64,000 nucleotides of DNA from Cyanobacteriota bacterium (GCA_019752015.1 JAIEMQ010000021.1:879-64878); one strand, 5' to 3'. Shown: positions 8,922 through 42,738, counted from the first letter of the stretch. The notes: a model not told the origin generated them from the letters alone. Program-made: numbers and translations.

Positions 8922-9919
8922 TGCAGCCCGAGACTGATGATTCTCTCGATCAACTTCGCGTACGACACGCCGGCGCGTTTGGCCGACTCGGCGAAATCCT
9001 CACCCTGCGCGAGTTGTGGATTGGGATTGGCCTCAATCACGAACAACTGGCCGTCCGGCTTCATGCGCAAATCGATGCGCGCGTAGCCCGACAGATCGAG
9101 CGCGCGATAGACGCGCTTCGACAGGTGCTGCACTTCAGCGGCCTGATCGTCGGTCAGCCCCGCGAGCGCCGTATCGATGCCGTGCTTCTTCTGATACTTC
9201 ACGCTCCACTTGACGCGCTCGGTGGCGATCTTCCAGTTGTTCTCGGGCAGCTTCGCGAACGACATTTCCCAGACCGGGAACGTCTGGAGGCGATCGATGC
9301 CCATCACGCCGCAATACAGCTCGCGGCCGTCGATGAACTCCTCGACGATCGCCGGCGTCATGATGGTGTCGTGAATGAACTGCACGCGCTTGCCGAGCTG
9401 ATCGTCGCTGGTGACGACCGACGCCTGCGAAATCCCCGTCGACGATTCATACGTCAGCGACTTGACGATCAGCGGGTACTGCAGCCGTTTCGGCAGCTTC
9501 GGTTTCGCGCCGATCGGCACCACCAGGAAATCCGGCACCGGGATGCGGTGGTAAGCCATCAGTTTCTTGGCGAGCGCCTTGTCGCGCGACAGCGTCAGGC
9601 CGCGCGGGTTGCATCCGGTGTACGGCACCTTCAACAATTCGAGATACGACACGACGTTCTGATCGAACACGATGATGTCGTCGAACGCTTCGATCAGGTT
9701 GAACGTGATCGTCGGCTTGAACTCGTCCATCGTCTTCTTGATCGGCGTGAGGTCGTCGTGCACGCCGATCACGCTGATCTCGTGGCCGAGCACCTTCAGC
9801 GTGCGGACGACGTCGTATTCCATGCGCCATTCGGCGGTCTGTGCGGTGGCCTTGTCGACTTTCTCGTCCGGCGGCTCGAGTCCCTTGTGGACGAGCGCCA
9901 GCACTCGTTGTGGTTTCAC
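8897..9919 (-). CDS. ATP-grasp enzyme, D-alanine--D-alanine ligase-like
   Basis: Ddl-like layout: 'RVLALVH...' N-domain, 'DKALAKKLMAYHRIPVPDF', 'PLIVKS', 'IVEEFIDGRELYCGV', 'YARIDLRM...LFVIEANPNP'. GTG start overlaps the upstream stop (GTGA). Confidence 0.8.
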   Translation of the reverse strand: MKPQRVLALVHKGLEPPDEKVDKATAQTAEWRMEYDVVRTLKVLGHEISVIGVHDDLTPIKKTMDEFKPTITFNLIEAFDDIIVFDQNVVSYLELLKVPYTGCNPRGLTLSRDKALAKKLMAYHRIPVPDFLVVPIGAKPKLPKRLQYPLIVKSLTYESSTGISQASVVTSDDQLGKRVQFIHDTIMTPAIVEEFIDGRELYCGVMGIDRLQTFPVWEMSFAKLPENNWKIATERVKWSVKYQKKHGIDTALAGLTDDQAAEVQHLSKRVYRALDLSGYARIDLRMKPDGQLFVIEANPNPQLAQGEDFAESAKRAGVSYAKLIERIISLGLQWRPSRMA

Positions 9920-25681: not shown

Positions 25682-26311
25682 TTAGGGATTTTTCCGCCAC
25701 CACGGCGTGCCGAGGTTCGTATACGGCCCGCCGTCGACCGAGATTGCGCTCGCCACTCGATAGTTGAGTGGCGAGAGCAAGTGCATCACGTGACGCACGC
25801 GCACCGACTTGCCATTGACCGTGAACGGCGCGCTGTCGAAGTGAATGTTGTAGATCCCGCCAAGATCGCCGCCCACCGGACCGAACTGCATGTAGGAAAA
25901 CCCGCGCGAGTCGGTGACCTGCCGCGCCAGCACCTTGTTTTCCTTGTGAAACGCGATCAGCTCGCGCACCTTGAAATTTCCTGACGGCCCTTCGCCTTCG
26001 GTGACCGCTTCGTAAAAGCGGCCGTCGACCTTCGACACGACTGTCGTGCCGGTGTAGGGACCCGCCGGTCCGAGCGGACTCTCCGGCATCGACCACTCGA
26101 AGGTCCACTTGCCAAGGAAATAGGTGTCGAAGTCGAACAGCGGGACCGTGTCCGTGCTCTCGGTCGGGCGGCCCAGCGCCGGCATGGCGCCCTTCGGCAC
26201 CTGCTGCAGTGTTTCTTTCGCGCCCTCCGGGCGCGAGGCTTCGCCATTCAGCGTCGAGTTGAGCGCCAGTAGAACGACAAGCCACGTCCGTTTCAGGTGT
26301 TGTATTCTCAC
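25682..26311 (-). CDS. Secreted protein of unknown function, paralogue of 63310-63930
   Basis: Shares 'GRPT...VPL(F/L)DFD.YFLG.WTF', 'FYEAV.EG', 'VTDSRG(F/Y)SY(M/T)Q', 'F.SAPFT..GK.VR..H' with the 63310 gene. Start uncertain: GTG 26311 gives a good signal peptide, and ATG 26338 is the alternative. Confidence 0.65.
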   Translation of the reverse strand: MRIQHLKRTWLVVLLALNSTLNGEASRPEGAKETLQQVPKGAMPALGRPTESTDTVPLFDFDTYFLGKWTFEWSMPESPLGPAGPYTGTTVVSKVDGRFYEAVTEGEGPSGNFKVRELIAFHKENKVLARQVTDSRGFSYMQFGPVGGDLGGIYNIHFDSAPFTVNGKSVRVRHVMHLLSPLNYRVASAISVDGGPYTNLGTPWWRKNP

Positions 26312-26324
26312 GCGCGGAGAGTAT

Positions 26325-27449
26325 ATGCGACGACTCATTCTCTTTTCGACTGCCGCGCTTGCGCTGAGCGCGATCATACCGATGAACGCGCAGGCACCCA
26401 CTCCGGTGTCCGCGCCAACCGACGGCGGCTACCGGCTCGTGCCGAACTGGCCGACACTGCCGCCCGGAGAGTTCTTCGGATTGAAGACGCCGCCACCGCC
26501 GCCCGCCGAACGTGAAGCGCAAGCCGCGGCGCGCCGCGCCACCGGCGGCGCAGGCAACACGCCTCGTCCCGCCGGCCAAGGCCCGACCAATCAGCCCGGC
26601 ATCTCGGGTCTCGCGATCGATCAGAACGATCGCATCTACGTGTTCAATCGCGGCGCCAAGCCGGTGATGGTGTTCAACACCGACGGCAAGCTCGTCGCAT
26701 TCGGCGGCGATCAGGATCTCAACGGCAAAAAGCTCGATCCGAACTGGCAACACTCGGGCACAGTCGATTGGGATGGCAATATCTACATGATCGAACGCGA
26801 CGCCCATCGCATCGTAAAAATGAACAACAAGATGGACAAAGTGCTACTGCAACTGGGTACGACGATGGAGAAGGGGAATGATGCGACGCATTTAGATCTC
26901 CCGTCAGGAATTGCAGTACTGAAGAACGGCAACATCATCGTTACCGACGGCTACGGCAATAACCGCGTCATCCTGTTCGACAAGACCGGCAAATTCATCA
27001 AACAAGCGGCAAAAGGTGCCGGCGGTCCTGGCGATAAAGGCAAAGGCATTGGCGAGTGGGATCTTCCGCACAAGCTGGCCGTTGATGCGCAGGAAAATCT
27101 CTACATCATCGACCGCGAAGGGCATCGCCTGCAGGTTTTCGACAAGAACTTGAATTATCTGCGCGAGATCAACGTGCCCGGATGGAATCCGTGGGACATC
27201 GGCATTTCACGCAAGGGTGATGACGGATTTGCGTACATCGCCGATCATGCGCTCGAACGTGTGCATAAGTTGTCGTTGAAGGACGGCAAGCTCGTCGCCA
27301 CGTGGGGCAAACAGGGATGGGGACCGGGAGAATTCGACTGGGTCCACGGCATCGTTGTCGACTCGAAGGGCGCCGTGTACGCAGCGGATACGTACGGTCA
27401 GCGCATTCAGAAATTTGTGCCGACGATGACCCGCACGAGTGTCCAGTAG
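26325..27449 (+). CDS. Secreted six-bladed NHL-repeat beta-propeller, peptidyl-alpha-hydroxyglycine lyase (PAL)-like
   Basis: Signal peptide 'MRRLILFSTAALALSAIIPMNAQA'. Six repeats of the form 'x(H/S)GxAVDxxGNIYVxDxxxHRIxxF', for example 'HSGTVDWDGNIYMIERDAHRIVKMN', 'LPHKLAVDAQENLYIIDREGHRLQVFD', 'VHGIVVDSKGAVYAADTYGQRIQKF'. Confidence 0.8.
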   Translation: MRRLILFSTAALALSAIIPMNAQAPTPVSAPTDGGYRLVPNWPTLPPGEFFGLKTPPPPPAEREAQAAARRATGGAGNTPRPAGQGPTNQPGISGLAIDQNDRIYVFNRGAKPVMVFNTDGKLVAFGGDQDLNGKKLDPNWQHSGTVDWDGNIYMIERDAHRIVKMNNKMDKVLLQLGTTMEKGNDATHLDLPSGIAVLKNGNIIVTDGYGNNRVILFDKTGKFIKQAAKGAGGPGDKGKGIGEWDLPHKLAVDAQENLYIIDREGHRLQVFDKNLNYLREINVPGWNPWDIGISRKGDDGFAYIADHALERVHKLSLKDGKLVATWGKQGWGPGEFDWVHGIVVDSKGAVYAADTYGQRIQKFVPTMTRTSVQ

Positions 27450-28525
27450 ATTCCCATTCCCGCAATAACTAGCGAGGCTGGTATCACCACGCGTTGGCGA
27501 TACCAGCCGTTTTTCATGAATGGAAATACTGCGATCATCGCCGCTGCGATGATCGTCAGCTGACCGAATTCAACGCCCAGGTTGAACGTCAGGAGCGCGG
27601 TCAGGAATTCATCGCGTGGCAGGCCGAGCTCGCGCAGCACGCCCGCGAATCCCAGGCCGTGCAGCAATCCGAACATGAACACCAGCGCGACTCGCCATGG
27701 CTTCAGCTCGCGCGTGACGATGTTCTCAACCGCGACGTAGGCGATCGACAGCGCGATCAGCGGTTCGACGGCTCGTGAGGGTAACGAGACGATGCCGTAC
27801 ATCGACAGGCCAAGCGTGATCGAGTGCGCGATCGTGAAGGCCGTGACCTGCAGCAGCAGCGGCTTCAGCCGCGCGCTGAGCAGAAAGAGGCCGAGCACGA
27901 ACAGGATGTGATCGAGTCCCTGTGGCAGGATGTGCGTGTAGCCGAGCCACAAGTACTGCCGCACGATCTCGATCCGCGTCGGCCGCGTGAACGATCGCGA
28001 CAGATCGATCACGGTGCTCCAGTTCGTGCCGTCGATCCACTCGATCGTCGACGACCCATCGGGCTGCCGGATCTCGAGCGGGTAGCGATCGCCGACGAGG
28101 CCATACAGCCACCGCAGCCGCGTGGCGTCGCGCGGCATTTGTCCAGTCAACCGGTAGCCGGTCTTCACGAACTCGACCGACGCCGCCCGGACTTCATGCG
28201 CATCGACAAACAACACGATGCGGTCCGCGAATATGCCGGTCAGATTCGCGAGGCGTTGATCGCGCTGTTCCGGCGTGATGTTTGGCGGGACGCTCCCGCC
28301 CGCGAACGTCTCGAGTCTGAGCAGCAGCCACATCGCATCGTTCGAGACATCGAGGACGAACGATCCGTCGGCCGACAGCGTCAGGCCGACGCGCGTTTTC
28401 TCGGCCTCGTGGGCGCCGATCGTGGTGCTCGCCAGCGCGACGAACAGAACGAGCGAAGCGAGCCCTGAGCGAGATGAACTTCGCCTGCGAAGTCCATCGA
28501 GTCGAAGGGACACGTGGCGTATCAT
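27407..28525 (-). CDS. HupE/UreJ-family metal permease with an N-terminal periplasmic domain
   Basis: 372 aa from 'MIRHVSLRLDG...'. Family motif 'HILPQGLDHILFVLGLFLL' plus further TM helices ('AFTIAHSITLG', 'FGLLHGLGFAG'). The upstream 615 aa of the 987-aa ORF is antisense to the 28946 gene and is rejected. Confidence 0.8.
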   Translation of the reverse strand: MIRHVSLRLDGLRRRSSSRSGLASLVLFVALASTTIGAHEAEKTRVGLTLSADGSFVLDVSNDAMWLLLRLETFAGGSVPPNITPEQRDQRLANLTGIFADRIVLFVDAHEVRAASVEFVKTGYRLTGQMPRDATRLRWLYGLVGDRYPLEIRQPDGSSTIEWIDGTNWSTVIDLSRSFTRPTRIEIVRQYLWLGYTHILPQGLDHILFVLGLFLLSARLKPLLLQVTAFTIAHSITLGLSMYGIVSLPSRAVEPLIALSIAYVAVENIVTRELKPWRVALVFMFGLLHGLGFAGVLRELGLPRDEFLTALLTFNLGVEFGQLTIIAAAMIAVFPFMKNGWYRQRVVIPASLVIAGMGIYWTLVRVIVGTNF

Positions 28526-28534
28526 ACGGCGCGT

Positions 28535-28891
28535 ATGAACGTTGTCTTTGCCGTGCTGGTGCTTGCGATCGTGCAGGCGCCGCCAAAGAAAGTCGAGATC
28601 GTCAGCGTCACCGGCTGCCTGCGCGAGCAGGGTCCGAACTGGATGCTGGTCGCGGCGACCGAGCCGGTGCCGAGCATCGCCAACCAGGCACAAGGCGCCG
28701 AGATTCCCACGACACCGCCGGCGGGCAAGAACACCTTCCGCCTGATCGGCACGAGCGAGTTCAACCTGCCGACGATGAAGGACCACACGGTGGTGATTCG
28801 CGGCCTGTTTATCACGGACAAGGTGAGCAGAATCAACGTCACCTCGGCGGTCGAAGCCGTCGCGTCCTGCACGCCCGGCGCTCCCAAATAG
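28535..28891 (+). CDS. Small secreted hypothetical protein (2 Cys)
   Basis: ATG 28535 gives the signal peptide 'MNVVFAVLVLAIVQAPP'. 118 aa. No recognisable motif. It lies directly upstream of the heme-c/PHM-like gene. Confidence 0.5.
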   Translation: MNVVFAVLVLAIVQAPPKKVEIVSVTGCLREQGPNWMLVAATEPVPSIANQAQGAEIPTTPPAGKNTFRLIGTSEFNLPTMKDHTVVIRGLFITDKVSRINVTSAVEAVASCTPGAPK

Positions 28892-28945
28892 GTTAAACTC
28901 GCCCGGAAGCTGTAACGGGTAACCCGTAACCGCAGGAGTCCGTAA

Positions 28946-30379
28946 ATGAAACGTCTCGCGTTGATCGCCATCGGTGTTGGAGCCCTCGCGTCGTTCAACG
29001 TTTCGGCACAGCCTTCCTTGACTGGCCCTCCGGGCCAGTCCCCGACGTTCGCCAGGGACGTCGCGCCGATCATGTACAGCAAGTGTGCGAACTGTCATCG
29101 TCCCGGCGAAGTGGCGCCGATGCCGCTGCTGTCGTACGAGGACGCGCGGCCGTGGGCCAAGGCGATTAAGTCCAAGGTCGTGGCGCGCGAAATGCCCCCA
29201 TGGGGCGCCGACATGTCGCAGACGCTGCCGATGCGCAACGACATCAGCCTGTCGCAGAAAGAGATCGACACGATCGCGGCGTGGGTCGATGGCGGCGCCG
29301 TCAGAGGCAACGCTTCTGAGATGCCGCCGTCGCCGAAGTTCGCGACCGGATGGACCGCCGGCACCGAGCCGGATCTCGTGCTCGCAATGCCCGTCGAGTT
29401 CGAGATTCCCGCCGAAGGCGAGCTCGGCGTGCAGATGTTCTATTCGAAGGTGCCGTGGACGGAAGACAAGTTCGCGGAGATCGTCGAGCTCAAGCCGAGC
29501 AACCGCGCCGTGCTGCATCACGCCGGCATTTTCTTCGTCGATATTCCCGAAGGCGCGTCGATCGTCGACGGCCGCATTGTCGACAAGGACGGCAAGGTGA
29601 TCGGCGATCGCGGATCGCGCGGGCTGCCGTCGACCGACAGCGGTCTTCCGGGATCGAGCAAGCTGCTGTCGTGGGTGCCCGGCCGCGGGCTCGATCACCA
29701 TCGCGCCGACATCGGCAAACGCCTGCCGGCGGGCAAGTACATCAACTGGCAGCTCCACTACAACCCGACCGGCAAGCCGGAAAAGGATCGGACCAAGCTG
29801 GGCATCTGGTTCAACAAGGTGCCGGTAACGCACGAAGTGCTGATTCGCCAGGCCGGCGATCCGCTGGCGACGACCAAGGGCGGCCTGTCGATCTATCGCG
29901 CCGAAGGCCGCGAGACCGAATACACGGCGGACCCCGGCAGCACGCGCCGCAGCCGCACCACGCCGAACATTCCGCCGTACGCGGAAAACTGGCGCCTGAC
30001 CGGCATCACGCCGGTGACCGAAGACATCACGCTCTATGCGATGTCGCCGCACATGCACCTGCGCGGCAAGAGCTTGAAGTGGGTGATCGTCTATCCGGAC
30101 GGCACCGAGAAAACGATCCTCAACGTGCCGAAGTTCGACTTCAACTGGCAGTTCAACTACGAGTTGAAGGAGCCGCTGAAGATTCCCGCGGGCAGCAAGA
30201 TCCTCGGCCTCGGGGTGTATGACAACTCGATCCGCAACAAGTGGAATCCAGGCCCGCACCTGCCGGTCTACTGGTCGGAGCAGAGCTGGGACGAGATGTA
30301 TCAGCCGTTCACCGAGTACTCCGTCGACTCGCAGGACTTGACGGTTCTCAAGCCCGTCACGCAGCAGCAACGGGACTGA
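28946..30379 (+). CDS. Secreted fusion of an N-terminal heme-c (CxxCH) domain to a PHM/DBH-like type-II copper monooxygenase domain (paralogue 1)
   Basis: 'FARDVAPIMYSKCANCHRPGEVAPMPLLSYEDARPWAKAIKSKVVAREMPPWG'. Cu-ligand-like positions are 'AVLHHAGIFF' (HH), 'WQLHYNPTG' (H), 'SPHMHLRGK' (HxH) and 'SWDEMY' (M). Also 'FDFNWQ'. Confidence 0.8.
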   Translation: MKRLALIAIGVGALASFNVSAQPSLTGPPGQSPTFARDVAPIMYSKCANCHRPGEVAPMPLLSYEDARPWAKAIKSKVVAREMPPWGADMSQTLPMRNDISLSQKEIDTIAAWVDGGAVRGNASEMPPSPKFATGWTAGTEPDLVLAMPVEFEIPAEGELGVQMFYSKVPWTEDKFAEIVELKPSNRAVLHHAGIFFVDIPEGASIVDGRIVDKDGKVIGDRGSRGLPSTDSGLPGSSKLLSWVPGRGLDHHRADIGKRLPAGKYINWQLHYNPTGKPEKDRTKLGIWFNKVPVTHEVLIRQAGDPLATTKGGLSIYRAEGRETEYTADPGSTRRSRTTPNIPPYAENWRLTGITPVTEDITLYAMSPHMHLRGKSLKWVIVYPDGTEKTILNVPKFDFNWQFNYELKEPLKIPAGSKILGLGVYDNSIRNKWNPGPHLPVYWSEQSWDEMYQPFTEYSVDSQDLTVLKPVTQQQRD

Positions 30380-30452
30380 GGAGCATCCGGCTTGAGCCGG
30401 TTTGTTCCCGGCTGTTTAGCGCTGGCCTTCGTCCAAAGCGGCGGAGGCCAGC

Positions 30453-31019: not shown

Positions 31020-31607
31020 TTACTTGACGATCTTCCCGCCGTTGCGATTGTCGATGACGAAGCGATCGCGCGACGGCATCACGACCTTCGGCAGCGTCGC
31101 GCGATCCATGACCGCATCCTCGGGCACGATCTTGTTGAGCGCGAGGATGTAGGCGGTCAGCGCATACGTTTCATCCGGCGTCAGCGTGCCCGGCTGCATG
31201 AACGGCATCGCTCGATTCGTGTAGTCGTACAACGTCGTCGCATACGGCCAGTAGTTGCCGACGGTCTTCACGAGTTTCGGATTGGTCGCGAAGTCCCAGT
31301 TCTTGCCCGACTCGCGATCGACAAGACGATCCGCGGATCCGCCGATGCCGTTGGCGCCGTGGCACGACTGGCATTTCGCGGCGTAGATCTTTGCGCCTTC
31401 AGCCGCGGTGCCTTTTCCCTCTGGCAAACCTTTGCCGTCAGGACGCACGTCGATATCGATTTTCGCGATCTCTTGCGCCGTTGCGACCCGACCAATCCCG
31501 AGCGGCTTGGCAGATTGTGGTTGAGCCATCACGCTAATTGAGCAAGCGGCCGCGATCGCGAGCACGAAAGAAAAGTATCTGTGCCTGCTGTGGCCCTGGG
31601 AACGCAT
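31020..31607 (-). CDS. Cytochrome c subunit of sulfite dehydrogenase (SorB/SoxD-like)
   Basis: Signal peptide and 'CQSCHGANG' heme motif. The start overlaps the stop of the molybdoenzyme gene by 1 nt. Confidence 0.75.
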   Translation of the reverse strand: MRSQGHSRHRYFSFVLAIAAACSISVMAQPQSAKPLGIGRVATAQEIAKIDIDVRPDGKGLPEGKGTAAEGAKIYAAKCQSCHGANGIGGSADRLVDRESGKNWDFATNPKLVKTVGNYWPYATTLYDYTNRAMPFMQPGTLTPDETYALTAYILALNKIVPEDAVMDRATLPKVVMPSRDRFVIDNRNGGKIVK

Positions 31608-32851
31608 TAGAGGCTCCCTGCGAATTTCACGCTGCCATCGGCATTCACTTTCCAGGCGCGGATGTGATTGAAGTGATACGCCGTCGACGGACCGCGGGCC
31701 GCGAGCAACACGTCGTAGGTTGGCTGCACGTAGCCTGTTTCATCGGTGGCGCGGCTCGCCAGTACGGTCTCGCCGCCCTTCCATTCGAACGGCAGACGGA
31801 ACCGCGTATGGCACTTCGGCAGCACCGGATCGTCGAGCTTCGCGAGCTGCCAGGTCCTGCCGCCATCGGCGCTGACGTCGACCCTGGTGATCCTGCCGCG
31901 GCCGCTCCACGCGATACCGCGAATCTCCCACCAGCCCGGGCCGGTCAGCTTGTCGGGGAACGACGGCTCGGTGATCAGCGACTTCGCATCCATGTCGAGG
32001 CTGAAGATGCGCGCGGTGCCATCGGGCAGCGGATCGGTGTACTTCGACGTTTCCTCGCGCGTCATGAACGGCTGATCGGCGAGCTCGATGCGGCGCAGCC
32101 ACTTCACGCTGGCGTTGCCTTCCACGCCGGGCAGGAACAGGCGGACCGGATAGCCCTGCTCGGGACGCAGCGGCTCGCCGTTCTGTCCGTAGGCAATGAG
32201 CGCGTCATCCCACGCCTTGGCGATCGGAATGCTGCGCGTCATCACGGCAGCGTCGGAGCCTTCGGCGAGAAACCAGGTGGCGTTCGGTGATGCGCCGGCT
32301 TCGCGCAGCAGCGTGGCCAGCGGCACACCGGTCCATTCGCTGGTGCTCGTCAGCCCGTCGATCTGCTGCGGCGTGAGATCGGTTTGATGGCCTTCACGTC
32401 GATAGACGCGGCCGCCGTTGCCGGAGCATTCCATCGCGCGAATGATCGATCGGCCCGGGAAGCGGCGCAGATCGTCGACGGTGAAGACCATCGGCCGATC
32501 GACCAGGCCGTGAATCGTCAGCGTGTGCTGCGTCGGATCGATCGCCGGCACGCCGCCGTGATGGCGCTCGAAGTGCAGATCGCTCGGCGTGATGATGCCG
32601 TCGAGATCCTGCAGCGGCGTGAGGCTCGACGTGCGCCGCTCGCCGAGCGACACGCGCTTCGGCCGCTCGAATGGCGAGCGCGATCCGACGTCGGTGCTGA
32701 GCGGACCTTGCACTTTCGTGGGGTCGGCGGGGACTTTCGGACGCGCCGCCTGATCCGGATTCTGGCCGGCGATCGGCAACGCCGCGCCGACGATACCTGC
32801 GGTTCCGGCTGCTAATACCCGCCGCCGCGAGATGGAATGCGGTCGATCCAT
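31607..32851 (-). CDS. Molybdopterin sulfite oxidase-family catalytic subunit (SorA/SoxC-like), Tat-exported
   Basis: ATG 32851 is preceded by GGAGGA. Twin-arginine signal 'SISRRRVLAAGTAGIVGAA'. Mo-ligand cysteine context 'IRAMECSGNGGR'. 414 aa. Confidence 0.85.
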   Translation of the reverse strand: MDRPHSISRRRVLAAGTAGIVGAALPIAGQNPDQAARPKVPADPTKVQGPLSTDVGSRSPFERPKRVSLGERRTSSLTPLQDLDGIITPSDLHFERHHGGVPAIDPTQHTLTIHGLVDRPMVFTVDDLRRFPGRSIIRAMECSGNGGRVYRREGHQTDLTPQQIDGLTSTSEWTGVPLATLLREAGASPNATWFLAEGSDAAVMTRSIPIAKAWDDALIAYGQNGEPLRPEQGYPVRLFLPGVEGNASVKWLRRIELADQPFMTREETSKYTDPLPDGTARIFSLDMDAKSLITEPSFPDKLTGPGWWEIRGIAWSGRGRITRVDVSADGGRTWQLAKLDDPVLPKCHTRFRLPFEWKGGETVLASRATDETGYVQPTYDVLLAARGPSTAYHFNHIRAWKVNADGSVKFAGSL

Positions 32852-33018
32852 GCGTCCTCCTGAAGTTGCGCGAGCGTAGCAGAAAGTCGGGTTGGACGTT
32901 CGTTTAATAGAATCGCGCCACTTTTCGTGAATTTCTGCGCTCCGGACGCTACGTTTGGGGCCAGCCCCCGGATGTCGTACGGGCTTTACAAACGCTGACA
33001 CGAAATCCCGCTAAGTCG

Positions 33019-33047
33019 TTGATAATTCTGGTTGTTAGTGTTACAAA
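33019..33047 (+). promoter_or_regulatory. Candidate sigma70-type promoter for the 33092-52402 gene array
   Basis: TTGATA-N17-TACAAA lies in a locally AT-rich island about 45 nt upstream of ATG 33092. This is a pattern match only. Confidence 0.3.
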
Positions 33048-33091
33048 ACGGCCGTGCTAGCCAGGCGGCAAACGTGTCACGTAGGCGCCGA

Positions 33092-35551
33092 ATGAAAAGA
33101 CTCACGTCAGTAATTTTCTCCGCGCTCGTGTTTGCCCTTGGTCTCTCTGTTTTTGCAGACCAGAACAAACCCGCGCCGGCAGCATCGCAGCCCGTTGCTT
33201 CACACACCGCCACCGCCATCACTGACTCACAGACTGCCCTCGTGAAGCAGTATTGCGCGACCTGTCACAACGATCGCAACAAGAACAACGCCGGCGGCTT
33301 GACGCTGCAGACGTTCGACGCGGCGAAGGTCGGCCACGACGCCCAGGTGGCGGAAGTCGCCGAGAAGATGATCAAGAAGCTGCGCTCCGGCATGATGCCG
33401 CCGCCCAGCGCGCGGCGTCCCGAGGGCGCGGTGCTGGCGTCGTTTGCCGCGTCGATGGAATCGCGGCTCGATCAGGCCGCGGCGCTCAACCCCAATCCCG
33501 GCCGCCGGCCGTTCCAGCGCCTCAATCGCGCCGAGTACACGCGCACGGTGAACGCGCTGCTGTCGCTCGACGTCGACGTCAACGCCTTCCTGCCGCCCGA
33601 CACGATCAGCGCCGGCTTCGACAACGTCGCGGATGCGCAGACGTTTTCGGCGACGCTGATGGAAGGCTACCTGCGCGCCGCGAGCCGCATCAGCACGCTC
33701 GCGGTCGGCGATCCGAAAGCCAGCGCCTCGGAATTCACCTACAAAGTGCCGCGCACCGGCTCGCAGATGCATCACGTCGAGGGCGCGCCGTTCGGCACGC
33801 GCGGCGGCGTGGCGGTGGAGCACACGTTCCCGGCGGACGGCGACTACAGCTTCCGCATGCAGCTGCACTCGATCCCGACCGGCCAGTTGTTCGGCAGCAC
33901 CGTGCGCGGTGAGTTGATCGAAGTGTCGATCGACGGCGAGCGCGCCGCGGTCCTCGAGATCAACCCGCGCATGAGCGAGGCCGATCCGAACGGCATGAAC
34001 ATCGTGACGCCGCGCGTCCACGTCAAGGCGGGCACGCATCGCCTGTCGGCGGCGTTCGTGCAGCGCTTCGACGCGGTGCCCGACGATCTGCTGCCGCCGA
34101 TCGATCACAGCCTGGCGGATTCACAGATCGGCGCGGGGTTCGGCATCACCACGCTGCCGCACCTCCGCGAGTTCGCGGTCAGCGGCCCGTTCAAGGTCAC
34201 CGGCGTGTCGGAGACGCCGAGCCGCAAGCGCATCTTCACGTGCCGGCCGACGTCGGCGAGCGAAGAGAGCACGTGCGCGGCGGAGATCATCCGCAAGATC
34301 GCGACGCAGGCGTATCGCGGTCCGCTGTCGGCGCAGGACGTCGATGGCCTGACGAAGTTCTACGCGCAGGGACGCAAGGACGGCGGCGATTTCGAGTCGG
34401 GCATCCGCATGGCGCTGCAGGCCATCCTGGCGAGCCCGCGATTCCTGTTCCGTCTCGAGGAAGCGCCGGCCACCGTGCGCGCGGGGCAGAACTACCGCAT
34501 CAGCGATCTCGATCTGGCGACGCGCCTGTCGTTCTTCATCTGGGGCGCGGGTCCCGATGACGAGCTGCTGAAGCTCGCGCAGCGCGGCACATTGCGCGGC
34601 CCCGGCGTGCTGCCGGCGCAGGTCAAGCGCATGCTCGCCGATCCGAAATCGGAAGCGCTGTCGACGCGGTTCGGCGCGCAGTGGCTGCGGTTGCAGGATC
34701 TCGAGAAGATTTATCCGGACGCGCTGCTGTTCCCGTATTACGACTTCAAGCTCGGCGAAGCGCTGCGCAAGGAAACCGAGCTCTTCTTCGACAGCATCGT
34801 CCGGGAAGACCGCAGCCTGCTCGATCTGATCACGGCGGACTACACCTTCGTGAACGAGCGCGTGGCGCGTCACTACGGCATTCCGAACATCAACGGCGAG
34901 AACTTCCAGCGCGTCACGCTCGCCGACGAGAATCGGCGCGGTCTGCTTGGCCAGGGCAGCATCCTCGCGCTGACGTCGGTGGCCGATCGCACCTCCCCGG
35001 TGCTGCGCGGCAAGTGGATCATGGAAGTGCTGCTGGCGTCGCCGCCGCCGGCGCCGCCGCCGAATGTGCCGCTGCTCGATGAGACGAAGGCGGAGTCCGC
35101 CGATGGCGGCATGCTGACGACGCGTCAACGCATGGAGCAGCATCGCGCCAACCCGCAGTGCAACTCCTGCCATCGCGTGATCGATCCGCTCGGCCTCGCG
35201 CTCGAGAATTTCGACGTCACCGGCCGCTGGAGAATCCGCGACAACGGCAACCTGGTTGATCCGGTCGGCGACCTCTACGACGGCACGAAGATGACGGGCC
35301 CGAACGGCCTGCGCGCGGCGCTGTTGAAGCACCAGGACATGTTCTTCACGAGCGTCACCGAGAGCCTGATGACCTACAGCCTCGGCCGCCGCGTCGAGTA
35401 TTTCGACATGCCCGCGATTCGCAGGATCATCCGCGACGCGGCGAAGGACGACAACCGGTTCTCGGCCTACGTGCTGGGAGTGGTGAACAGCCGCGCGTTC
35501 CAGATGGCCCGCGCGGACGCCGTGGACACGACCGACGAGAAGAATCGCTGA
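33092..35551 (+). CDS. Module 1 gene A: large secreted heme-c multidomain protein (planctomycete-type DUF1592/DUF1595/DUF1587/DUF1588/DUF1585-like)
   Basis: Signal peptide 'MKRLTSVIFSALVFALGLSVFA'. 'LVKQYCATCHNDRNK' and 'CNSCHRVIDPLGLALENFDVTG' are two CxxCH motifs. Also 'MIKKLRSGMMPPP', 'VADRTSPVLRGKWIMEVLLASPPP'. Confidence 0.85.
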   Translation: MKRLTSVIFSALVFALGLSVFADQNKPAPAASQPVASHTATAITDSQTALVKQYCATCHNDRNKNNAGGLTLQTFDAAKVGHDAQVAEVAEKMIKKLRSGMMPPPSARRPEGAVLASFAASMESRLDQAAALNPNPGRRPFQRLNRAEYTRTVNALLSLDVDVNAFLPPDTISAGFDNVADAQTFSATLMEGYLRAASRISTLAVGDPKASASEFTYKVPRTGSQMHHVEGAPFGTRGGVAVEHTFPADGDYSFRMQLHSIPTGQLFGSTVRGELIEVSIDGERAAVLEINPRMSEADPNGMNIVTPRVHVKAGTHRLSAAFVQRFDAVPDDLLPPIDHSLADSQIGAGFGITTLPHLREFAVSGPFKVTGVSETPSRKRIFTCRPTSASEESTCAAEIIRKIATQAYRGPLSAQDVDGLTKFYAQGRKDGGDFESGIRMALQAILASPRFLFRLEEAPATVRAGQNYRISDLDLATRLSFFIWGAGPDDELLKLAQRGTLRGPGVLPAQVKRMLADPKSEALSTRFGAQWLRLQDLEKIYPDALLFPYYDFKLGEALRKETELFFDSIVREDRSLLDLITADYTFVNERVARHYGIPNINGENFQRVTLADENRRGLLGQGSILALTSVADRTSPVLRGKWIMEVLLASPPPAPPPNVPLLDETKAESADGGMLTTRQRMEQHRANPQCNSCHRVIDPLGLALENFDVTGRWRIRDNGNLVDPVGDLYDGTKMTGPNGLRAALLKHQDMFFTSVTESLMTYSLGRRVEYFDMPAIRRIIRDAAKDDNRFSAYVLGVVNSRAFQMARADAVDTTDEKNR

Positions 35552-35590
35552 TTGCAGATTGCAGATTGCAGATTGCAGATTGCTGATTAG
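35550..35590. repeat. Heptanucleotide tandem repeat (GATTGCA)x4 plus GATTGCT plus a partial copy
   Basis: It starts inside the stop codon of gene A1 and ends at the Shine-Dalgarno (aggaga) of gene B1. Confidence 0.9.
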
Positions 35591-35599
35591 GAGAGCCCG

Positions 35600-37012
35600 A
35601 TGGAGTTCCTGACGAAAAAGCACATCTCACGCCGCACGATGCTGCGCGGCCTCGGTGTCACGATGGCCCTGCCGGTGCTGGATGCGATGTCGCCTGCCGC
35701 GACCGCGTTCGCCCAGACCACCGCCGCGGCGAAGAAGGTGCGCTTGACGGCGATCGAGATGGTGCACGGCTCCGCCGGCGCCACCCAGTTCGGCCTCGGC
35801 AAGAACTTCTGGTCGCCGGCTGAAGTCGGCACCGCGTTCGACCTGAGCCCCGGATCGCTCTCGTCGCTCGAGCCGTTCCGCGATTACCTGACGATCGTCA
35901 GCAACACCGACGTCAGGAACGCGGAAGCGTTCTCGCTGCCGGAAATCGGCGCCGATCACTTCCGCTCGAGCGCGGTGTTCCTGACGCAGTCGCATCCCAA
36001 GAAGACGCAGGGCTCGGATGTGCTCGCCGGCACGTCGCTCGATCAGCTCTACGCGCAGAAGTTCGGACAGGACACGGCGATTCCGTCGATGCAGCTGTCG
36101 ATCGAGACGGTCGATCAGTCCGGCGGCTGCGCTTACGGGTACAGCTGCGCCTACACCGACAGCATCAGCTGGGCGACGCCCGAGCAGCCGCTGCCGATGA
36201 TCCGCGACCCGCGCGCGATTTTCGATTCACTGTTCGGCGTCGGCGCCACCGCGGCCGAGCGCGCGCAGAGCCGCCGCGCCGACAAGAGCATCCTCGACTG
36301 GGTCACCGCGGAAGTGTCGCGCCTCAGCAAGGATCTCGGCGCCTCGGATCGCCAGCGCCTGAATCAATACCTGACCGAGATTCGCGAGATCGAGCGCCGC
36401 ATCCAGAAGATCGAGGCGCAGAACTCGAGCGGCGACGTGCGCGAGCTGCCGGACGCGCCGGTCGGCGTGCCGGATGATTTCGCCGAGCACGTCAAGCTGA
36501 TGTTCGATCTCCAGGTGCTCGCCTACGCATCGGACACGACGCGCGTGTTCTCGTTCAAGATGGGCCGCGACGGGTCGGCGCGCGTCTATCCCGAGAGCGG
36601 CGTGCGCGGCGCGTTCCACCCGGCGTCGCACCACGGCGAGCGCGAGGATCGCGTCACCGACTTCATGAAGATCAACCGCTATCACGTCAGCATGGTTCCG
36701 TACTTCCTCAAGAAGCTGAAGGAGACGCCGGACGGCGACGGCCAGAACCTGCTCGACAACACGCTGGTGATCTACGGATCGCCGATGGGCAACTCGAACG
36801 TCCACAACCACAAGCGCTGCCCGCTGTTCCTCGCCGGCAAGGCCGGCGGCGCGCTGCGCGGCAACCTGCACCTCAAGGCCGCCGACGGCACGCCGATGGC
36901 CAACGTGTTCCTGACGGTGATGCAGGACATTGGTCTCGATCTGAAGAGCTTTGGTGACAGCACCGGCCGGTTTGAGTTGAAGAGTGTTCCGCCGGCGACG
37001 GCGGCGTTCTAA
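35600..37012 (+). CDS. Module 1 gene B: Tat-exported DUF1552-like ('HxxSHH') protein
   Basis: Twin-arginine signal 'HISRRTMLRGLGVTMALPVLDAM'. 'FHPASHHGERED', 'TIVSNTDVRNAEAF', 'GSPMGNSNVHNHKRCPLF'. Confidence 0.85.
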   Translation: MEFLTKKHISRRTMLRGLGVTMALPVLDAMSPAATAFAQTTAAAKKVRLTAIEMVHGSAGATQFGLGKNFWSPAEVGTAFDLSPGSLSSLEPFRDYLTIVSNTDVRNAEAFSLPEIGADHFRSSAVFLTQSHPKKTQGSDVLAGTSLDQLYAQKFGQDTAIPSMQLSIETVDQSGGCAYGYSCAYTDSISWATPEQPLPMIRDPRAIFDSLFGVGATAAERAQSRRADKSILDWVTAEVSRLSKDLGASDRQRLNQYLTEIREIERRIQKIEAQNSSGDVRELPDAPVGVPDDFAEHVKLMFDLQVLAYASDTTRVFSFKMGRDGSARVYPESGVRGAFHPASHHGEREDRVTDFMKINRYHVSMVPYFLKKLKETPDGDGQNLLDNTLVIYGSPMGNSNVHNHKRCPLFLAGKAGGALRGNLHLKAADGTPMANVFLTVMQDIGLDLKSFGDSTGRFELKSVPPATAAF

Positions 37013-37022
37013 GAGGACTGTC

Positions 37023-38786
37023 ATGCGTAGGTTGATTGCAGTCACATCGGTTTTGGCGATCACGCTTGCGATCGTCGTCAACGCCGCGGCCACCGCACCC
37101 GTTGCGGATGCGGCGATGTCGCGCGACCGCGAGACCGTCAAGACGCTGCTGAAGAACGGCGCCGACGTCAACGCGGCGCAGGGCGACGGCATGACCGCGC
37201 TGCACTGGGCGGCGAGAAACGGCGACGCCGAGCTGACGCAGATGCTGCTGTTCGCCGGCGCGAACGTCAAAGCAACCACGCGGCTCGGCGGCTACACGCC
37301 GCTCTTGATGGCGGCGGATCAGGGTCATGCCGCGGTGATCAAGACGCTGCTCGTGGGCGGAGCGGATGCAAAAGCCGCGAACCTGCTGGGCACGACGCCG
37401 TTGATGCTGGCGGCGGCGTCCGGCAACGCGCAGGCCGTCACGACGCTCGTCGAGAACGGCGCCGAGATCGAAGCCAAGGAAAAGACGTTCGGCCAGACAC
37501 CGCTGATGTTCGCCGCGGCATCGAATCGCGTTGAGGCGATCAACGCGCTGTTGAAGCTCGGCGCGAACGTCAAGGCGACGTCGAAGGTCAACAACGTCGG
37601 CAATCTCAGCTCGCAGCAGCAGGAATTCCTTGCGAGCGCCTCCGGCAGCGGGAATCAGGCCGGCGGCAACGGGACGGGTCGGAACGGACAGGTCGTCGCT
37701 CCGGGTGCGCAGGCTCCGCCGCAGGGTGGCGGCGGTGGTGGCGGCGGCCGATTTGGCGGCGGCGGCAAGCCCGGCATCGATCGCGGCTACTTCTACAACG
37801 AGCTGATCGGCACGCAGGGCGGCCACTCGGCGCTGATCCTTGCCGCGCGCGGCGGCTTCACCGAGGCGGTGAAGGCGCTCGTCGCCGGCGGCGCCAGCGT
37901 CAATCAGATCAGCGAGGGCGACCACACCAGCCCGCTGTTGATCGCCGCGATCAACGGTCACTTCGATCTCGCGAAGTGGCTGCTCGATCAGGGCGCCAAC
38001 CCGAGCGCGGCCGCCGACAACGGCGTGACGCCGCTCTATGCGGCGCTGAACGTGACCTGGGCGCCGCGCGCGCTCTATCCGCAGCCGCGCGCGTTCAACC
38101 AGCAGCAGATTACCTACCTCGATTTCATGAAGGCGCTGCTCGAGAAGGGCGCCGATCCGAACCTGCGCCTCAGCAAGAAGGTGTGGTACTCGGAATACAA
38201 CTTCGATCTCGCCGGCGTCGACGAAGCCGGCGCGACGCCGTTCTGGCGCGCCGCGTTCGCCGGCGACGTGGCGGCCATGGCGCTGTTGTACGAGCACGGC
38301 GCCGATCCCAATATTTCGACAATGCGTCCGATCGGACGACGCGCGTTGGGTGATGCCGGCGCTGCGCGTGAAGTGAAGGATGTGTCGGGCCTGGATCCGA
38401 TTGCGCCCGGCGGCCCCGGTGTTCCGCCGCTGCAGGCCGCGGCCGGCGTCGGCTTCGGTGAAGGCTTCGCCGCCAACTCGCACATTCATTCGCCGGCGGG
38501 CTTCCTGCCCGGCATCAAGTTCATGGTGGAAGTGGCGGGCGCCGACGTCAACGCCGTCGATCACGATGGCAACACGGCGCTGCATCACGCCGCCGCGCGC
38601 GGCGACGTCGAGAGCATCCTGTATCTCGTCTCGAAGGGCGCCGACGTCAAGAAGGTGAATCGCGAAGGCCAGACCGTTGCCGACATGGCGAACGGCCCGG
38701 TGCAGCGCGTGCAGCCGTGGCCCGAGGCGCTGACGCTGCTCGAGAAGCTCGGCTCCAGGAACAATCACAAGTGCGTTAGCTGCTGA
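37023..38786 (+). CDS. Module 1 gene C: secreted ankyrin-repeat protein with a Gly-rich linker and C-terminal NNHKCVSC
   Basis: Sec signal 'MRRLIAVTSVLAITLAIVVNAAA'. Repeated 'G.TALHWAA..G....(V/L)LL..GA(D/N)VNA' units. G-run 'GGGGGGGRFGGGGKPG'. Ends '...NNHKCVSC'. Confidence 0.85.
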   Translation: MRRLIAVTSVLAITLAIVVNAAATAPVADAAMSRDRETVKTLLKNGADVNAAQGDGMTALHWAARNGDAELTQMLLFAGANVKATTRLGGYTPLLMAADQGHAAVIKTLLVGGADAKAANLLGTTPLMLAAASGNAQAVTTLVENGAEIEAKEKTFGQTPLMFAAASNRVEAINALLKLGANVKATSKVNNVGNLSSQQQEFLASASGSGNQAGGNGTGRNGQVVAPGAQAPPQGGGGGGGGRFGGGGKPGIDRGYFYNELIGTQGGHSALILAARGGFTEAVKALVAGGASVNQISEGDHTSPLLIAAINGHFDLAKWLLDQGANPSAAADNGVTPLYAALNVTWAPRALYPQPRAFNQQQITYLDFMKALLEKGADPNLRLSKKVWYSEYNFDLAGVDEAGATPFWRAAFAGDVAAMALLYEHGADPNISTMRPIGRRALGDAGAAREVKDVSGLDPIAPGGPGVPPLQAAAGVGFGEGFAANSHIHSPAGFLPGIKFMVEVAGADVNAVDHDGNTALHHAAARGDVESILYLVSKGADVKKVNREGQTVADMANGPVQRVQPWPEALTLLEKLGSRNNHKCVSC

Positions 38787-38790
38787 TGCG

Positions 38791-41292
38791 ATGAAGAGAG
38801 CTCTCCCCGCAATTGGATTAGTCATCACGGCGTCGGCCGTCGCACTGGTTGCCGCCGGCAGTCAGCAGCCATCCGCGTCCGCCTTCGCGGCCCAGAACGC
38901 CCCGGCCGCTTCGGCGAGACAGGCTCCGTCAATTCAGCCGGCGATTGCGCACGCGACGGCCGGACCCACGATGACGGTCGCCGACCAGAACGCACTCGTC
39001 AAGCAGTACTGCGTCGGCTGCCATAACGATCGCAACAAGGATCGAACGAGCGGCCTGTCGTTCCAGTCATTCGATGCGGCGGCGATCGGCGATCACGCCG
39101 ATGTCGCGGAGAAGATGATCCGCCGCCTCCGGTCGGGCATGATGCCGCCGGTCGGGGCGAAGCGTCCCGATCAGGCGACCATCAACAGCCTCGTCAACGC
39201 GTTCGAGACGCGCATCGATCGCGCCGCCGCGCTCAATCCGAATCCCGGCTGGCGTCCGTCGCAGCGTCTCAATCGCGCGGAGTATCAGCGCGCGGTAAAG
39301 GATCTGCTGGCGGTTGATGTGGACGTCAACCAGTTCCTGCCGGCCGACACGCTGAGCGACGGTTTCGACAACATTGCCGACACGCAGACGATTTCATCGA
39401 CGTTGATGGAAGGCTACCTGCGCGCCGCGAGCCAGATCAGCCGGCTCGCCGTTGGCGATCGCAACGCCTCGCCGACGTCGACGACCTGGAAGGTGCCGCG
39501 CACCGCGTCGCAGATGCGTCACGTCGAGGGCGCGCCGCTCGGCACGCGCGGCGGCCTGTCGGTGCTGCACGTCTTCCCGGCCGACGGCGAGTACTTCTTC
39601 AAGATCATGCTGCACATGGGACCGACCGGCGACCTGTTCGGCGGCCCCTATCGCGGCGAGCAGATCGAGGTCTCGATCGACGGCGAGCGCGTCGCGTTGA
39701 TGGACATCAACCCGCGCATGAACGAGCAGGACCCGAACGGCATGACGATGCAGACGCCGAACGTCAACATCAAGGCCGGCCAGCATCGCGTGTCGGCGGT
39801 GTTCGTGCAGCGCTTCGACGGTCCCGCCGACGACCTGATCATGCCGATCGAGCACACGCTCGCAGACACCAACATCGGTGAGGTGTTCGGCACGACGGCC
39901 CTCACGCACTTGCGCGACTTCACGGTCGCCGGACCGGTGAGCGTCACCGGCGTGTCCGAAACCGAGAGCCGCCGCAAAATCTTTACCTGCCGCCCCACGA
40001 ATGCGCTCGAAGAGTCGGCCTGCGCCGCCGACATCGTCCGCAAGCTGGCGTCGCAGGCGTATCGCGGCACGGTCCCGGCGGACGACCTCAAGGACCTGAT
40101 GTCGTTCTACGAGCGCGGCCGGAAGCAGAGCGATTTCGAAGGCGGCATCCGCATGGCGGTGCAGGCGGTTCTCGCCAGCCCGCGCTTCCTGTTCCGCATC
40201 GAGCAGACGCCGTCTTCGTTGAAGGCGGGGCAGACCTATCGCATCAGCGATTCCGATCTCGCCTCACGCCTGTCGTTCTTCATCTGGGGCTCGATGCCCG
40301 ACGCGGAATTGTTGAAGACCGCGTCGCAAGGCACGCTGCGCACGCCGGTGGTGTTCGAGAAGCAGCTGAAGCGGCTGCTCGCCGATCAGCGTTCGACGGC
40401 GCTGTCGACGCGCTTTGCATCGCAGTGGCTGCGCCTGCAGGACGTCGACAAGGTGCGCCCCGATCATCATTTCTATTCCTACTGGGACACCACGCTGTCG
40501 CAGGCGATGGTCCGCGAGACGGAGCTGTTCGTCGACAGCCTGATTCGCGAGGATCGCCCGGTCACCGATCTGCTGACCGCCGATCACACGTTCGTGAACG
40601 AGCGGCTCGCGAAGCATTACGGCATCCCGAACATCCTCGGCGATCAGTTCCGCCGCGTCACGATCGACGACGTCAATCGCCGCGGCGTGCTCGGCCAGGG
40701 CAGCGTGCTGCTGCTGACCTCGATCGCCGATCGCACGTCGCCGGTGTTGCGCGGCAAGTGGGTGATGGAAGTGCTGCTCGGCTCGCCGCCGCCGCCGCCG
40801 CCGCCCAACGTGCCGCTGCTCGAAGAGACCAAGGCGGTTGACGAAGGCAAGACGCTGTCGACGCGCGAGCGCATGGAGATGCACCGCAAGAACCCGTCGT
40901 GCAACTCGTGCCATCGCGTGATCGATCCGCTCGGCCTGGCGCTCGAGAATTTCGACGTTACCGGCGTGTGGCGCATCAAGGACAACGGCGCTGCTGTCGA
41001 TCCGGTCGGCGATCTCTACGACGGCACCAGGCTCGATGGCCCGATCGCGCTGCGCAATGCGCTGCTCAAGCACCAGGACGTCTTCATGCTCAGCTTCACC
41101 GAGAGCCTGATGACGTATGCGCTCGGCCGCCGCGTCGAGTCGTACGACATGCCGGCGATCCGGCAGATCGTGCGCGATGCGAAGGCGAAGAATTACCGGT
41201 TCTCAGCATTTATTTCGGGCGTCGCCAACAGCGCCGCCTTCCGCATGGGGCGCGTCGCTCCGGCGGAAACCACGAACGCGGAATCACGTTAA
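38791..41292 (+). CDS. Module 2 gene A: heme-c multidomain protein (paralogue of 33092-35551)
   Basis: 'LVKQYCVGCHNDRNKDR', 'MIRRLRSGMMPPV', 'IADRTSPVLRGKWVMEVLLGSPPPPPPPNVP', 'CNSCHRVIDPLGLALENFDVTG'. Starts 4 nt after gene C1. Confidence 0.85.
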   Translation: MKRALPAIGLVITASAVALVAAGSQQPSASAFAAQNAPAASARQAPSIQPAIAHATAGPTMTVADQNALVKQYCVGCHNDRNKDRTSGLSFQSFDAAAIGDHADVAEKMIRRLRSGMMPPVGAKRPDQATINSLVNAFETRIDRAAALNPNPGWRPSQRLNRAEYQRAVKDLLAVDVDVNQFLPADTLSDGFDNIADTQTISSTLMEGYLRAASQISRLAVGDRNASPTSTTWKVPRTASQMRHVEGAPLGTRGGLSVLHVFPADGEYFFKIMLHMGPTGDLFGGPYRGEQIEVSIDGERVALMDINPRMNEQDPNGMTMQTPNVNIKAGQHRVSAVFVQRFDGPADDLIMPIEHTLADTNIGEVFGTTALTHLRDFTVAGPVSVTGVSETESRRKIFTCRPTNALEESACAADIVRKLASQAYRGTVPADDLKDLMSFYERGRKQSDFEGGIRMAVQAVLASPRFLFRIEQTPSSLKAGQTYRISDSDLASRLSFFIWGSMPDAELLKTASQGTLRTPVVFEKQLKRLLADQRSTALSTRFASQWLRLQDVDKVRPDHHFYSYWDTTLSQAMVRETELFVDSLIREDRPVTDLLTADHTFVNERLAKHYGIPNILGDQFRRVTIDDVNRRGVLGQGSVLLLTSIADRTSPVLRGKWVMEVLLGSPPPPPPPNVPLLEETKAVDEGKTLSTRERMEMHRKNPSCNSCHRVIDPLGLALENFDVTGVWRIKDNGAAVDPVGDLYDGTRLDGPIALRNALLKHQDVFMLSFTESLMTYALGRRVESYDMPAIRQIVRDAKAKNYRFSAFISGVANSAAFRMGRVAPAETTNAESR

Positions 41293-41318
41293 GGCAGAAG
41301 GCAGAAGGCAGAAGGCGA
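41291..41318. repeat. Heptanucleotide tandem repeat (AAGGCAG)x3 plus AAGGCGA
   Basis: It starts within the TAA stop of gene A2 and ends just before the Shine-Dalgarno (agaggag) of gene B2. This is the same junction position as the 35550 repeat, but the unit sequence differs. Confidence 0.9.
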
Positions 41319-41331
41319 AAAGAGGAGCCCG

Positions 41332-42735: not shown

Positions 42736-42738
42736 ATC

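Follow-up and report, generated by a model that had tools for sequence, protein, structure and literature searches.

Within a 64,000-nucleotide (nt) stretch of DNA from a Cyanobacteriota bacterium (GCA_019752015.1, JAIEMQ010000021.1:879-64878; here called the window, with a G+C content of about 65%), five adjoining genes at 25682-30379 encode homologues of both halves of the amidating enzyme PAM, together with a metal permease and two small secreted proteins. Animal PAM consists of PHM, a copper hydroxylase, and PAL, a zinc lyase, and depends on ascorbate, copper, and O2; in standard accounts, and to our knowledge, it is the only enzyme that makes C-terminal peptide amides. Both bacterial enzymes are homologous to their PAM counterparts, their catalytic residues are conserved, and the linkage of their genes is conserved at other loci. 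The reading toward which we lean, with some reserve, is that the cluster encodes a periplasmic two-enzyme system that would carry out an oxidative, amidation-like N-dealkylation. A narrower version of this reading, in which the locus would be a genuine bacterial alpha-amidating system, with a cytochrome c-driven, ascorbate-independent PHM and a stand-alone PAL acting on glycine-ended peptides or N-acylglycines, is tentative and appears to us distinctly less probable.

Spurious open reading frames (ORFs) are abundant at such a G+C content. The five ORFs that an earlier, sequence-only reading of this DNA had called in this interval were confirmed by translation and by scans against Pfam and NCBIfam, at the positions it had given. 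The four soluble products all begin with a hydrophobic, signal-peptide-like N terminus; signal peptides, and the cleavage site of the permease that is considered below, were judged by eye from the sequences.

The heme c/PHM-like monooxygenase

The monooxygenase gene (28946-30379, + strand) encodes 477 amino acids. With the single sequence, Pfam returned only sub-threshold matches to PF13442 and to PF03712 (21.2 bits against a 23-bit cut-off), and a search of the PDB found no PHM match or anything else. A family profile built from 37 diverse members that are 31-79% identical to the window protein (alignment A1) had PHM (1.2e-7) and DBH (2.6e-7) as its top matches in the PDB, in both cases over the two catalytic domains, and it covered residues 24-277 of the PHM chain.

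All six copper ligands of PHM have counterparts in this alignment. At the CuH site, H191, H192, and H271 align to PHM H107, H108, and H172; H191 and H271 do not vary across the 37 sequences, and H192 is kept in at least 90% of them. At the CuM site, H369 and H371 (an HxH motif) and M451 align to PHM H242, H244, and M314 and are present in at least 90% of the sequences, the sole exception being one that is frameshifted. The same sequences conserve a class I cytochrome c domain, with C47xxC50H51 and a Met83 that lies in an M83-P-P-W motif. Because the six ligands align and the profile matches PHM and DBH, the assignment to the PHM/DBH type, already proposed in the sequence-only reading, holds, and as judged from these alignments the protein is a heme c domain fused to a PHM/DBH-type two-copper core. 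The fused cytochrome c domain, of the CxxCH/Met type, suggests that the electrons come from a protein rather than from ascorbate. Additionally, a family-specific arginine, R373 (HxHxRG), is nearly invariant and might substitute for the carboxylate-binding residues of PHM.

Homologues of this protein number at least 5,996 matches in a database clustered at 90% identity, most of them from Acidobacteriota/Vicinamibacterales and named only "cytochrome c" or "hypothetical," and the family comprises 15,769 clusters at 50% identity (E <= 1e-3). Some members carry an N-terminal AhpC/TSA redoxin domain; others have a C-terminal alpha/beta-hydrolase, GDSL lipase, ankyrin, CBM48, or EF-hand domain, and BlaR1-type domains occur too. 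Distant relatives are arranged in tandem arrays of up to five copies. These varied fusions and arrays point to a diversified family with many substrates. The exact window sequence is present in drinking-water metagenomes, and we take the host to be an acidobacterium of water or soil. In soil and sediment metatranscriptome contigs that are 85-95% identical, the monooxygenase gene is well covered and the other four genes are covered thinly; in the environment, genes closely related to the monooxygenase gene are thus apparently transcribed. Among the loci surveyed below, L042, L046, L050, L052, L057, and L058 contain arrays of three to five diverged monooxygenase paralogues, with no DUF1579-, PAL-, or HupE-like neighbor.

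The PAL-like propeller

The adjoining NHL propeller gene (26325-27449, + strand) encodes a secreted protein that matches PF01436 (1.8e-26) and PF17170 (9e-17). When its single sequence was compared with the PDB, PAL (3fvz) was matched in one piece (1.3e-21) and ranked behind TRIM71 and Thin, whose scores are raised by their repeated blades. A profile built from 15 orthologues (alignment A3, which includes a 41%-identical protein from locus L070) matched PAL 3fvz with an E value of 2.5e-34 in one stretch, with profile positions 90-367 aligned to chain residues 26-324, spanning 299 of the 329 PAL residues.

Six residues of the PAL active site are retained, as judged by this profile alignment, which is not a three-dimensional superposition; PAL residues are numbered as in full-length rat PAM (5wm0). 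R533 of rat PAL aligns to R109, H585 to H143, Y654 to Y210 (in a DGY motif of blade 3), H690 to H249, R706 to R264 (in a DR motif of blade 4), and H786 to H341. All six are invariant in A3, including in the L070 orthologue. In PAL, we take the aligned residues to be the zinc triad, the catalytic Tyr, and the carboxylate-binding Arg residues (Chufan et al. 2009). The three histidines occupy the "xHG" position of blades 2, 4, and 6 and are spaced 106 and 92 residues apart, as against 105 and 96 in PAL, and in the same output generic NHL proteins have none (TRIM71) or one (Thin) at those positions. By this alignment the propeller is specifically PAL-like, with candidate zinc ligands H143, H249, and H341, a candidate catalytic Y210, and candidate substrate-binding R109 and R264. 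The assignment to PAL had been called the weaker of the two when first proposed; the profile match and the retained His triad, Tyr, and both Arg residues now bear it out and make it the strongest part of that reading.

The retained Arg and Tyr residues argue for an alpha-hydroxy-carboxylate intermediate of the hydroxyglycine type. A few homologues bear the automatic JGI name "peptidylamidoglycolate lyase." At locus L003, two more divergent PAL-like paralogues (25-30% identity) directly follow the monooxygenase gene; one retains every catalytic residue, and in the other R109 is replaced by Lys.

The permease and two small secreted proteins

The permease gene (27407-28525, - strand) encodes a HupE_UreJ_2 protein with an extra N-terminal domain. 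The match to PF13795 (1e-49) is limited to residues 191-338, and about 150 extra residues follow the signal peptide. Within the transmembrane domain, H198, D205, H206, H234, E254, E267, N268, and H289 are invariant in eight orthologues. Equally invariant is H39, directly after the hydrophobic leader, which lies in the context A-H-[ED] in seven of the eight and P-H in the L070 protein. The permease profile (A6) matched no PDB chain at E <= 10, and the N-terminal domain is not assignable to either Ang-1 or Ang-2, the domains of the published anglerase permeases. Those HupE/UreJ-2 permeases, which have a periplasmic domain that begins with a His right behind the signal peptide (His1), bind Cu2+ with a Kd of about 60-70 nM and Ni2+ more weakly (PMC12537917), so that the literature lends support, by analogy, to the earlier suggestion that the cluster may have a metal supply of its own.

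The DUF1579-like gene (25682-26338, - strand) starts at an ATG at 26338 or a GTG at 26311 and encodes a secreted protein whose match to PF07617 (E 8e-5) reaches 23.0 bits against a cut-off of 25.2; a paralogue elsewhere in the window reaches 20.3 bits. No His, Cys, or Met is invariant in the family alignment (A4), and the family profile found nothing significant among PDB sequences. The AlphaFold2 (AF2) model (pLDDT 85.7) is a 10-stranded beta-barrel, for which Foldseek returned OssO (7.6e-6) and nitrobindin 2A13 (TMt 0.77, E 4e-5); Rv2717c is also resembled. No proximal His is conserved, and nitrobindin-type heme binding is therefore unlikely. From the model, we read the protein as a probable ligand-binding or small-molecule-handling barrel, not a heme protein or a metal chaperone. 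At some Blastocatellia loci, the barrel occurs with an extra N-terminal domain of about 60 residues (L039 13229-13891, L061 4829-5467, L062 5481-6194, and L076 4254-4898).

The small secreted protein (28535-28891, + strand; 118 amino acids) has no match in Pfam or NCBIfam and contains two invariant cysteines, C28 and C112 (alignment A5). Its AF2 model (pLDDT 84.8) is an OB-fold-like five-stranded barrel. The fold search gave weak OB-domain matches alone (E >= 0.017), and therefore no function is drawn from them.

Co-occurrence of the five gene families

The neighbors of the monooxygenase gene were scored with family hidden Markov models in 81 loci, comprising 80 monooxygenase-centered loci from one-genome-per-species contigs, found in a search with a closer alignment set (A2), plus L001. 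Three extra loci (L082-L084), which lie outside this set, were reached by look-ups starting from NHL homologues. All five genes are present together in eight loci (the window, L001, L002, L007, L070, and L082-L084). Co-occurrence beyond this genome, a check put forward in the sequence-only reading, is thus seen at seven other loci; the genes are arranged in three ways there, and the flanking contexts number three or more. The association of the five families is more than chance.

Locus L001 is independent of the window: its flanks are different, and its DUF1579-like and NHL genes share a strand, the opposite of the arrangement in the window. Between its NHL and HupE genes (7641-8245) lies a PIN/VapB (VapBC) toxin-antitoxin pair, the cluster being otherwise intact, and the same junction in L082 is occupied by a metallo-beta-lactamase-fold gene (8074-9186). 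Locus L070 is also independent, with other flanks and a G+C content of 46.7%, compared with about 65% here. Its HupE-like gene (-) is followed by the monooxygenase, DUF1579-like, NHL, and small-protein genes, all on the + strand; the five lie within 4.7 kb, and their products are 33-56% identical to those of the window. The closest relative is L002, with a monooxygenase that is 92% identical and genes that are 78-92% identical to Vicinamibacterales-type genes. The HupE-like gene of L002 (8441-9523) is split over two overlapping frames, by a frameshift or a long-read assembly error.

Across the 81 loci, the monooxygenase gene has a DUF1579-like gene next to it in about 30, down to an identity of 36%, and the small-protein gene is near it in 13-20. 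PAL-like and HupE-like genes are found only in L001-L007 and L070, always together; the monooxygenases of L001-L007 are at least 71% identical to that of the window, and several loci are cut by contig ends. In a quick monooxygenase tree, L070 groups with L008-L011, which have no PAL-like or HupE-like neighbors, suggesting an old link that has in places been lost or relocated. No residues were found that separate PAL-linked from unlinked monooxygenases, which gives no support either way.

Proposed mechanism and alternative explanations

As to the chemistry, the way in which electrons flow, the metal used, and the substrate, we infer the following. In a first step, the heme c-fused dicopper monooxygenase would use O2 to hydroxylate a C-H bond next to a nitrogen, most likely at the alpha-carbon of an N-substituted glycine. 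The two electrons needed would come from the periplasmic electron-transfer chain and pass through the fused cytochrome c domain to the CuH site, instead of being supplied by ascorbate. In a second step, the PAL-like zinc propeller would bind the resulting carbinolamide through a zinc-bound hydroxyl and an Arg-bound carboxylate and cleave the N-C bond, yielding an amide (or amine) and glyoxylate. The putative His1-domain permease would capture and import metal, most likely copper, for the enzymes, a role with a parallel in periplasmic cuproenzymes whose metallation depends on an importer. Probable roles of the nitrobindin-like barrel are to bind or present a hydrophobic substrate or to serve as a subunit of the monooxygenase, and the OB-like 2-Cys protein would be a second accessory. 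Candidate substrates are N-acylglycines, other glycine conjugates, and glycine-ended peptides.

A periplasmic two-step pathway had already been put forward in the sequence-only reading. A propeller lacking the PAL active-site residues, and families that do not co-occur outside this genome, would have counted against that reading; neither was observed, and each of its proposed checks that was run turned out in its favor. The homologues of both enzymes, their catalytic residues, and the linkage of their genes speak for it; the carboxylate-binding residues of PHM, the narrowness of the PAL/HupE linkage, and the division of the cluster into at least three transcription units (see below) do not. 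Several observations weigh against it. The PHM residues that contact the carboxylate and backbone of the peptide (R240, Y318, and N316) are replaced by S367, F455, and Q453, which fall in variable columns of A1, and the position two before the first CuM histidine varies as well. In the propeller, W339 and G342 stand where PAL has M784, of its hydrophobic pocket, and D787, a Ca2+ ligand. A PAL-like gene lies within 10 kb of the monooxygenase gene in 6 of the 81 loci and a HupE-like gene in 8, the PAL/permease link being confined to a narrow lineage plus L070. Across the family, it is the DUF1579-like barrel that partners the monooxygenase, and in the close sisters L008-L011 this is the only partner. 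Together with the majority of loci, in which no PAL-like gene is a neighbor, these sisters indicate clearly that the hydroxylase needs no adjacent lyase. Moreover, L002 and L082-L084 share the wide synteny of the window (ROK kinase, cytochrome c, SoxCD, and PSD genes) and are not independent of it.

The alternative that survives best is that two independent modules lie side by side. The monooxygenase and the DUF1579-like barrel, sometimes with the small protein, would then act without a lyase step, perhaps on a hydrophobic substrate, and the PAL-like and HupE-like proteins would be a separate pair of metal-dependent hydrolase/lyase and permease. Such an arrangement fits the widespread adjacency of the barrel and monooxygenase genes, which is repeated at both loci of the window, and the way in which the NHL and HupE genes come and go together and are confined to few loci; it also fits the lack of any specificity residue that tells linked from unlinked monooxygenases and the absence of the glycine-carboxylate residues of PHM. 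That precisely the two enzymes joined in PAM should have homologues side by side here would, however, be a striking coincidence. Their adjacency survives rearrangement in the low-G+C locus L070 and is re-created with divergent PAL-like paralogues in L003, and the propeller keeps the carboxylate-binding Arg and the Zn/Tyr set of PAL. On balance, we regard two separate modules as rather unlikely, albeit a serious competitor.

Modification of a protein is less probable again. The monooxygenase, with or without the lyase, would in this case act on a co-encoded secreted protein (the barrel or the 2-Cys protein) or on some other exported protein or peptide, in keeping with the action of PAM itself on peptides and with the co-conservation of two small secreted proteins with the enzyme. 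Yet no co-encoded protein ends in Gly, the C termini being ...RKNP, ...GAPK, and variants of these, and the co-encoded proteins were rejected as PAM-type substrates for this reason. Furthermore, the barrel and the small protein are predicted to be well folded and do not resemble precursor peptides, and no precursor-like short ORF was noticed.

We give very little credence to a copper-handling locus, in which the permease and copper proteins would serve uptake or detoxification, the monooxygenase-like protein would be a copper buffer or oxidase, and the NHL protein would be non-catalytic. A putative His1-domain HupE/UreJ_2 permease, of a type that binds Cu2+, does stand beside a two-copper protein, but the complete PHM and PAL catalytic sets are strictly conserved, the huge monooxygenase family mostly lacks a permease neighbor, and Pfam/NCBIfam scans of the locus revealed no CopA-, CusF-, CopC-, or CueO-type genes. 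Just as hard to credit is a chance adjacency that synteny has preserved among close relatives without functional meaning, since this could apply to L002 and L082-L084, which share the wider gene order of the window, but not readily to L001 and L070, whose flanks are unrelated, the latter keeping its five genes within 4.7 kb despite another order, another G+C content, and only 33-56% identity.

The two-enzyme N-dealkylation system thus remains the reading that we prefer. Should it be a genuine amidating system, its products would be amidated peptides or primary fatty-acid amides, or else it would provide glyoxylate and nitrogen salvage. The locus would then be a prokaryotic counterpart, or even the source, of eukaryotic PAM, and its monooxygenase would give a first functional anchor to a family of bacterial dicopper monooxygenases that comprises more than 15,000 clusters.

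Locus layout and neighboring genes

The five genes are oriented - + - + +. In two gene pairs, the divergent start codons are 9-13 nt apart or overlap (26311-26338 and 28525-28535), and the NHL and HupE genes are convergent, with 3' ends that overlap by 43 nt (27407-27449). This strand pattern, with its close divergent starts and 3' overlap, indicates at least three transcription units rather than one operon. With divergent starts this close and a convergent overlap, the promoters must be located within neighboring coding sequence. Promoters and terminators near the cluster were called by a consensus scan only, which placed promoter-like hexamers on the minus strand at 26349-26320 and 28548-28521 and a terminator-like GC hairpin followed by a T-run at 30387-30400 (+ strand), 8 nt past the stop codon of the monooxygenase gene. 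This hairpin is likely the 3' end of the transcript that covers the small-protein and monooxygenase genes. The G+C content dips to 60% over 26001-28000 (taking in the later half of the NHL gene and the HupE-like 3' end), as against about 65% in the flanks.

A second heme c/PHM-like paralogue (61846-63309, + strand; 41% identical to the first) has no PAL-like or HupE-like neighbor. Directly 3' of it is the paralogue of the DUF1579-like gene (63310-63930, + strand; 50% identity), in agreement with the sequence-only reading. A gene for a TPR and peptidase-MA-like zinc protease (60717-61820, + strand) ends 26 nt before this second monooxygenase gene, an adjacency that could hint at peptide substrates for the paralogue.

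On the 3' side of the cluster lie an OmpH/Skp gene and the genes of a SoxCD-type sulfite dehydrogenase (31020-33001, - strand), consisting of a molybdopterin subunit (TIGR04555, 1e-153) and a cytochrome c subunit; synteny of this pair with the cluster extends to L002 and L082-L084, which are close relatives. We considered the SoxCD, OmpH, and cytochrome c neighbors as parts of the system and rejected them, since L001 and L070 lack them and their synteny is limited to close relatives; the SoxCD-type pair probably lies outside the system. Farther along, at 33032-52402 (+ strand), head-to-tail genes for PSCyt/PSD multidomain heme proteins of 839, 833, 833, and 787 amino acids alternate with genes for proteins of about 467 and 560-600 amino acids. 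A PSD/PSCyt and DUF1552 (HXXSHH) pair is found about 3 kb from the cluster in L070 (15957-19824). Because such families are very common in these genomes, their proximity to the cluster may be due to chance.

Significance and relation to known systems

A full-text literature search found no description of a bacterial PHM-like/PAL-like pair or of a heme c/PHM fusion, which is not proof of absence. What would be new here is the two-step system of PAM in a split, bacterial, and cytochrome-fused form, with new accessory proteins. If this is true, the cluster would offer a testable prokaryotic counterpart for the origin of PAM chemistry, as well as an ascorbate-independent means, expressible in bacteria, of making amidated peptides or fatty amides by biocatalysis. 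It would also provide a functional foothold in a large and abundant family of copper monooxygenases from soil and freshwater bacteria that appears to be transcribed in the environment, and it would for the first time connect the recently described anglerase permeases with a particular copper enzyme.

The permease shares with the anglerase-HupE/UreJ-2 proteins (PMC12537917, Nat Commun 2025; PDB 9GCE) a periplasmic domain of about 150 amino acids, a linker around residue 180, and a PF13795 transmembrane domain in which His, Asp, and Glu residues are conserved; behind its apparent signal peptide, H39 is a candidate for the N-terminal His of those proteins. Its N-terminal domain has no detectable sequence similarity to any PDB chain, and by analogy it would be a third, acidobacterial type of anglerase. 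The published anglerase neighborhoods contain no PHM- or PAL-like genes (PMC12537917).

The DUF1579-like protein shares a predicted 10-stranded barrel (TMt up to 0.77) with the nitrobindin/THAP4 barrels and the OssO/OlmO spirocyclases (2A13, 3IA8, 2FR2, and 7SFP). It differs from nitrobindin in the lack of a conserved proximal His, and sequence identity is 10-18%.

A bacterial two-step N-dealkylation, by a hydroxylase and then a dedicated hemiaminal lyase, is known from the methylguanidine demethylation enzymes MdgH and MdgL, and the authors of that work state that, to their knowledge, PAL is the one other lyase dedicated to such a step (PMC12508155). In contrast to the proteins described here, MdgH and MdgL are unrelated in sequence and cytoplasmic; the hydroxylase is a 2-oxoglutarate/Fe dioxygenase, and the lyase has no homology to PAL.

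The two-domain copper core and its ligands are also those of the non-coupled binuclear copper monooxygenases DBH, tyramine beta-monooxygenase, and MOXD1 (PF01082/PF03712; 4ZEL), and the DBH match is as good as that to PHM. The window protein has a heme c domain in place of the DOMON domain of that group. Enzymes of the DBH group have no lyase as a partner, and the same seems to hold for most of the bacterial family.

The closest likeness is to PAM of animals and green algae (PHM 1PHM/1OPM, PAL 3FVZ, and full-length 5WM0). The cluster has both catalytic halves in physically linked genes, the six copper ligands of PHM, and the zinc triad, Tyr654, Arg533, and Arg706 of PAL, and in both cases the enzymes are exported to an oxidizing compartment. 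The bacterial version differs in that the halves are encoded by separate genes in different transcription units, not as one polypeptide, and in that the PHM-like core carries an N-terminal cytochrome c domain that presumably replaces ascorbate. R240, Y318, and N316 of PHM and M784 and D787 of PAL are not kept, and the bacterial enzymes have extra conserved partners in the nitrobindin-like barrel, the OB-like protein, and the permease.

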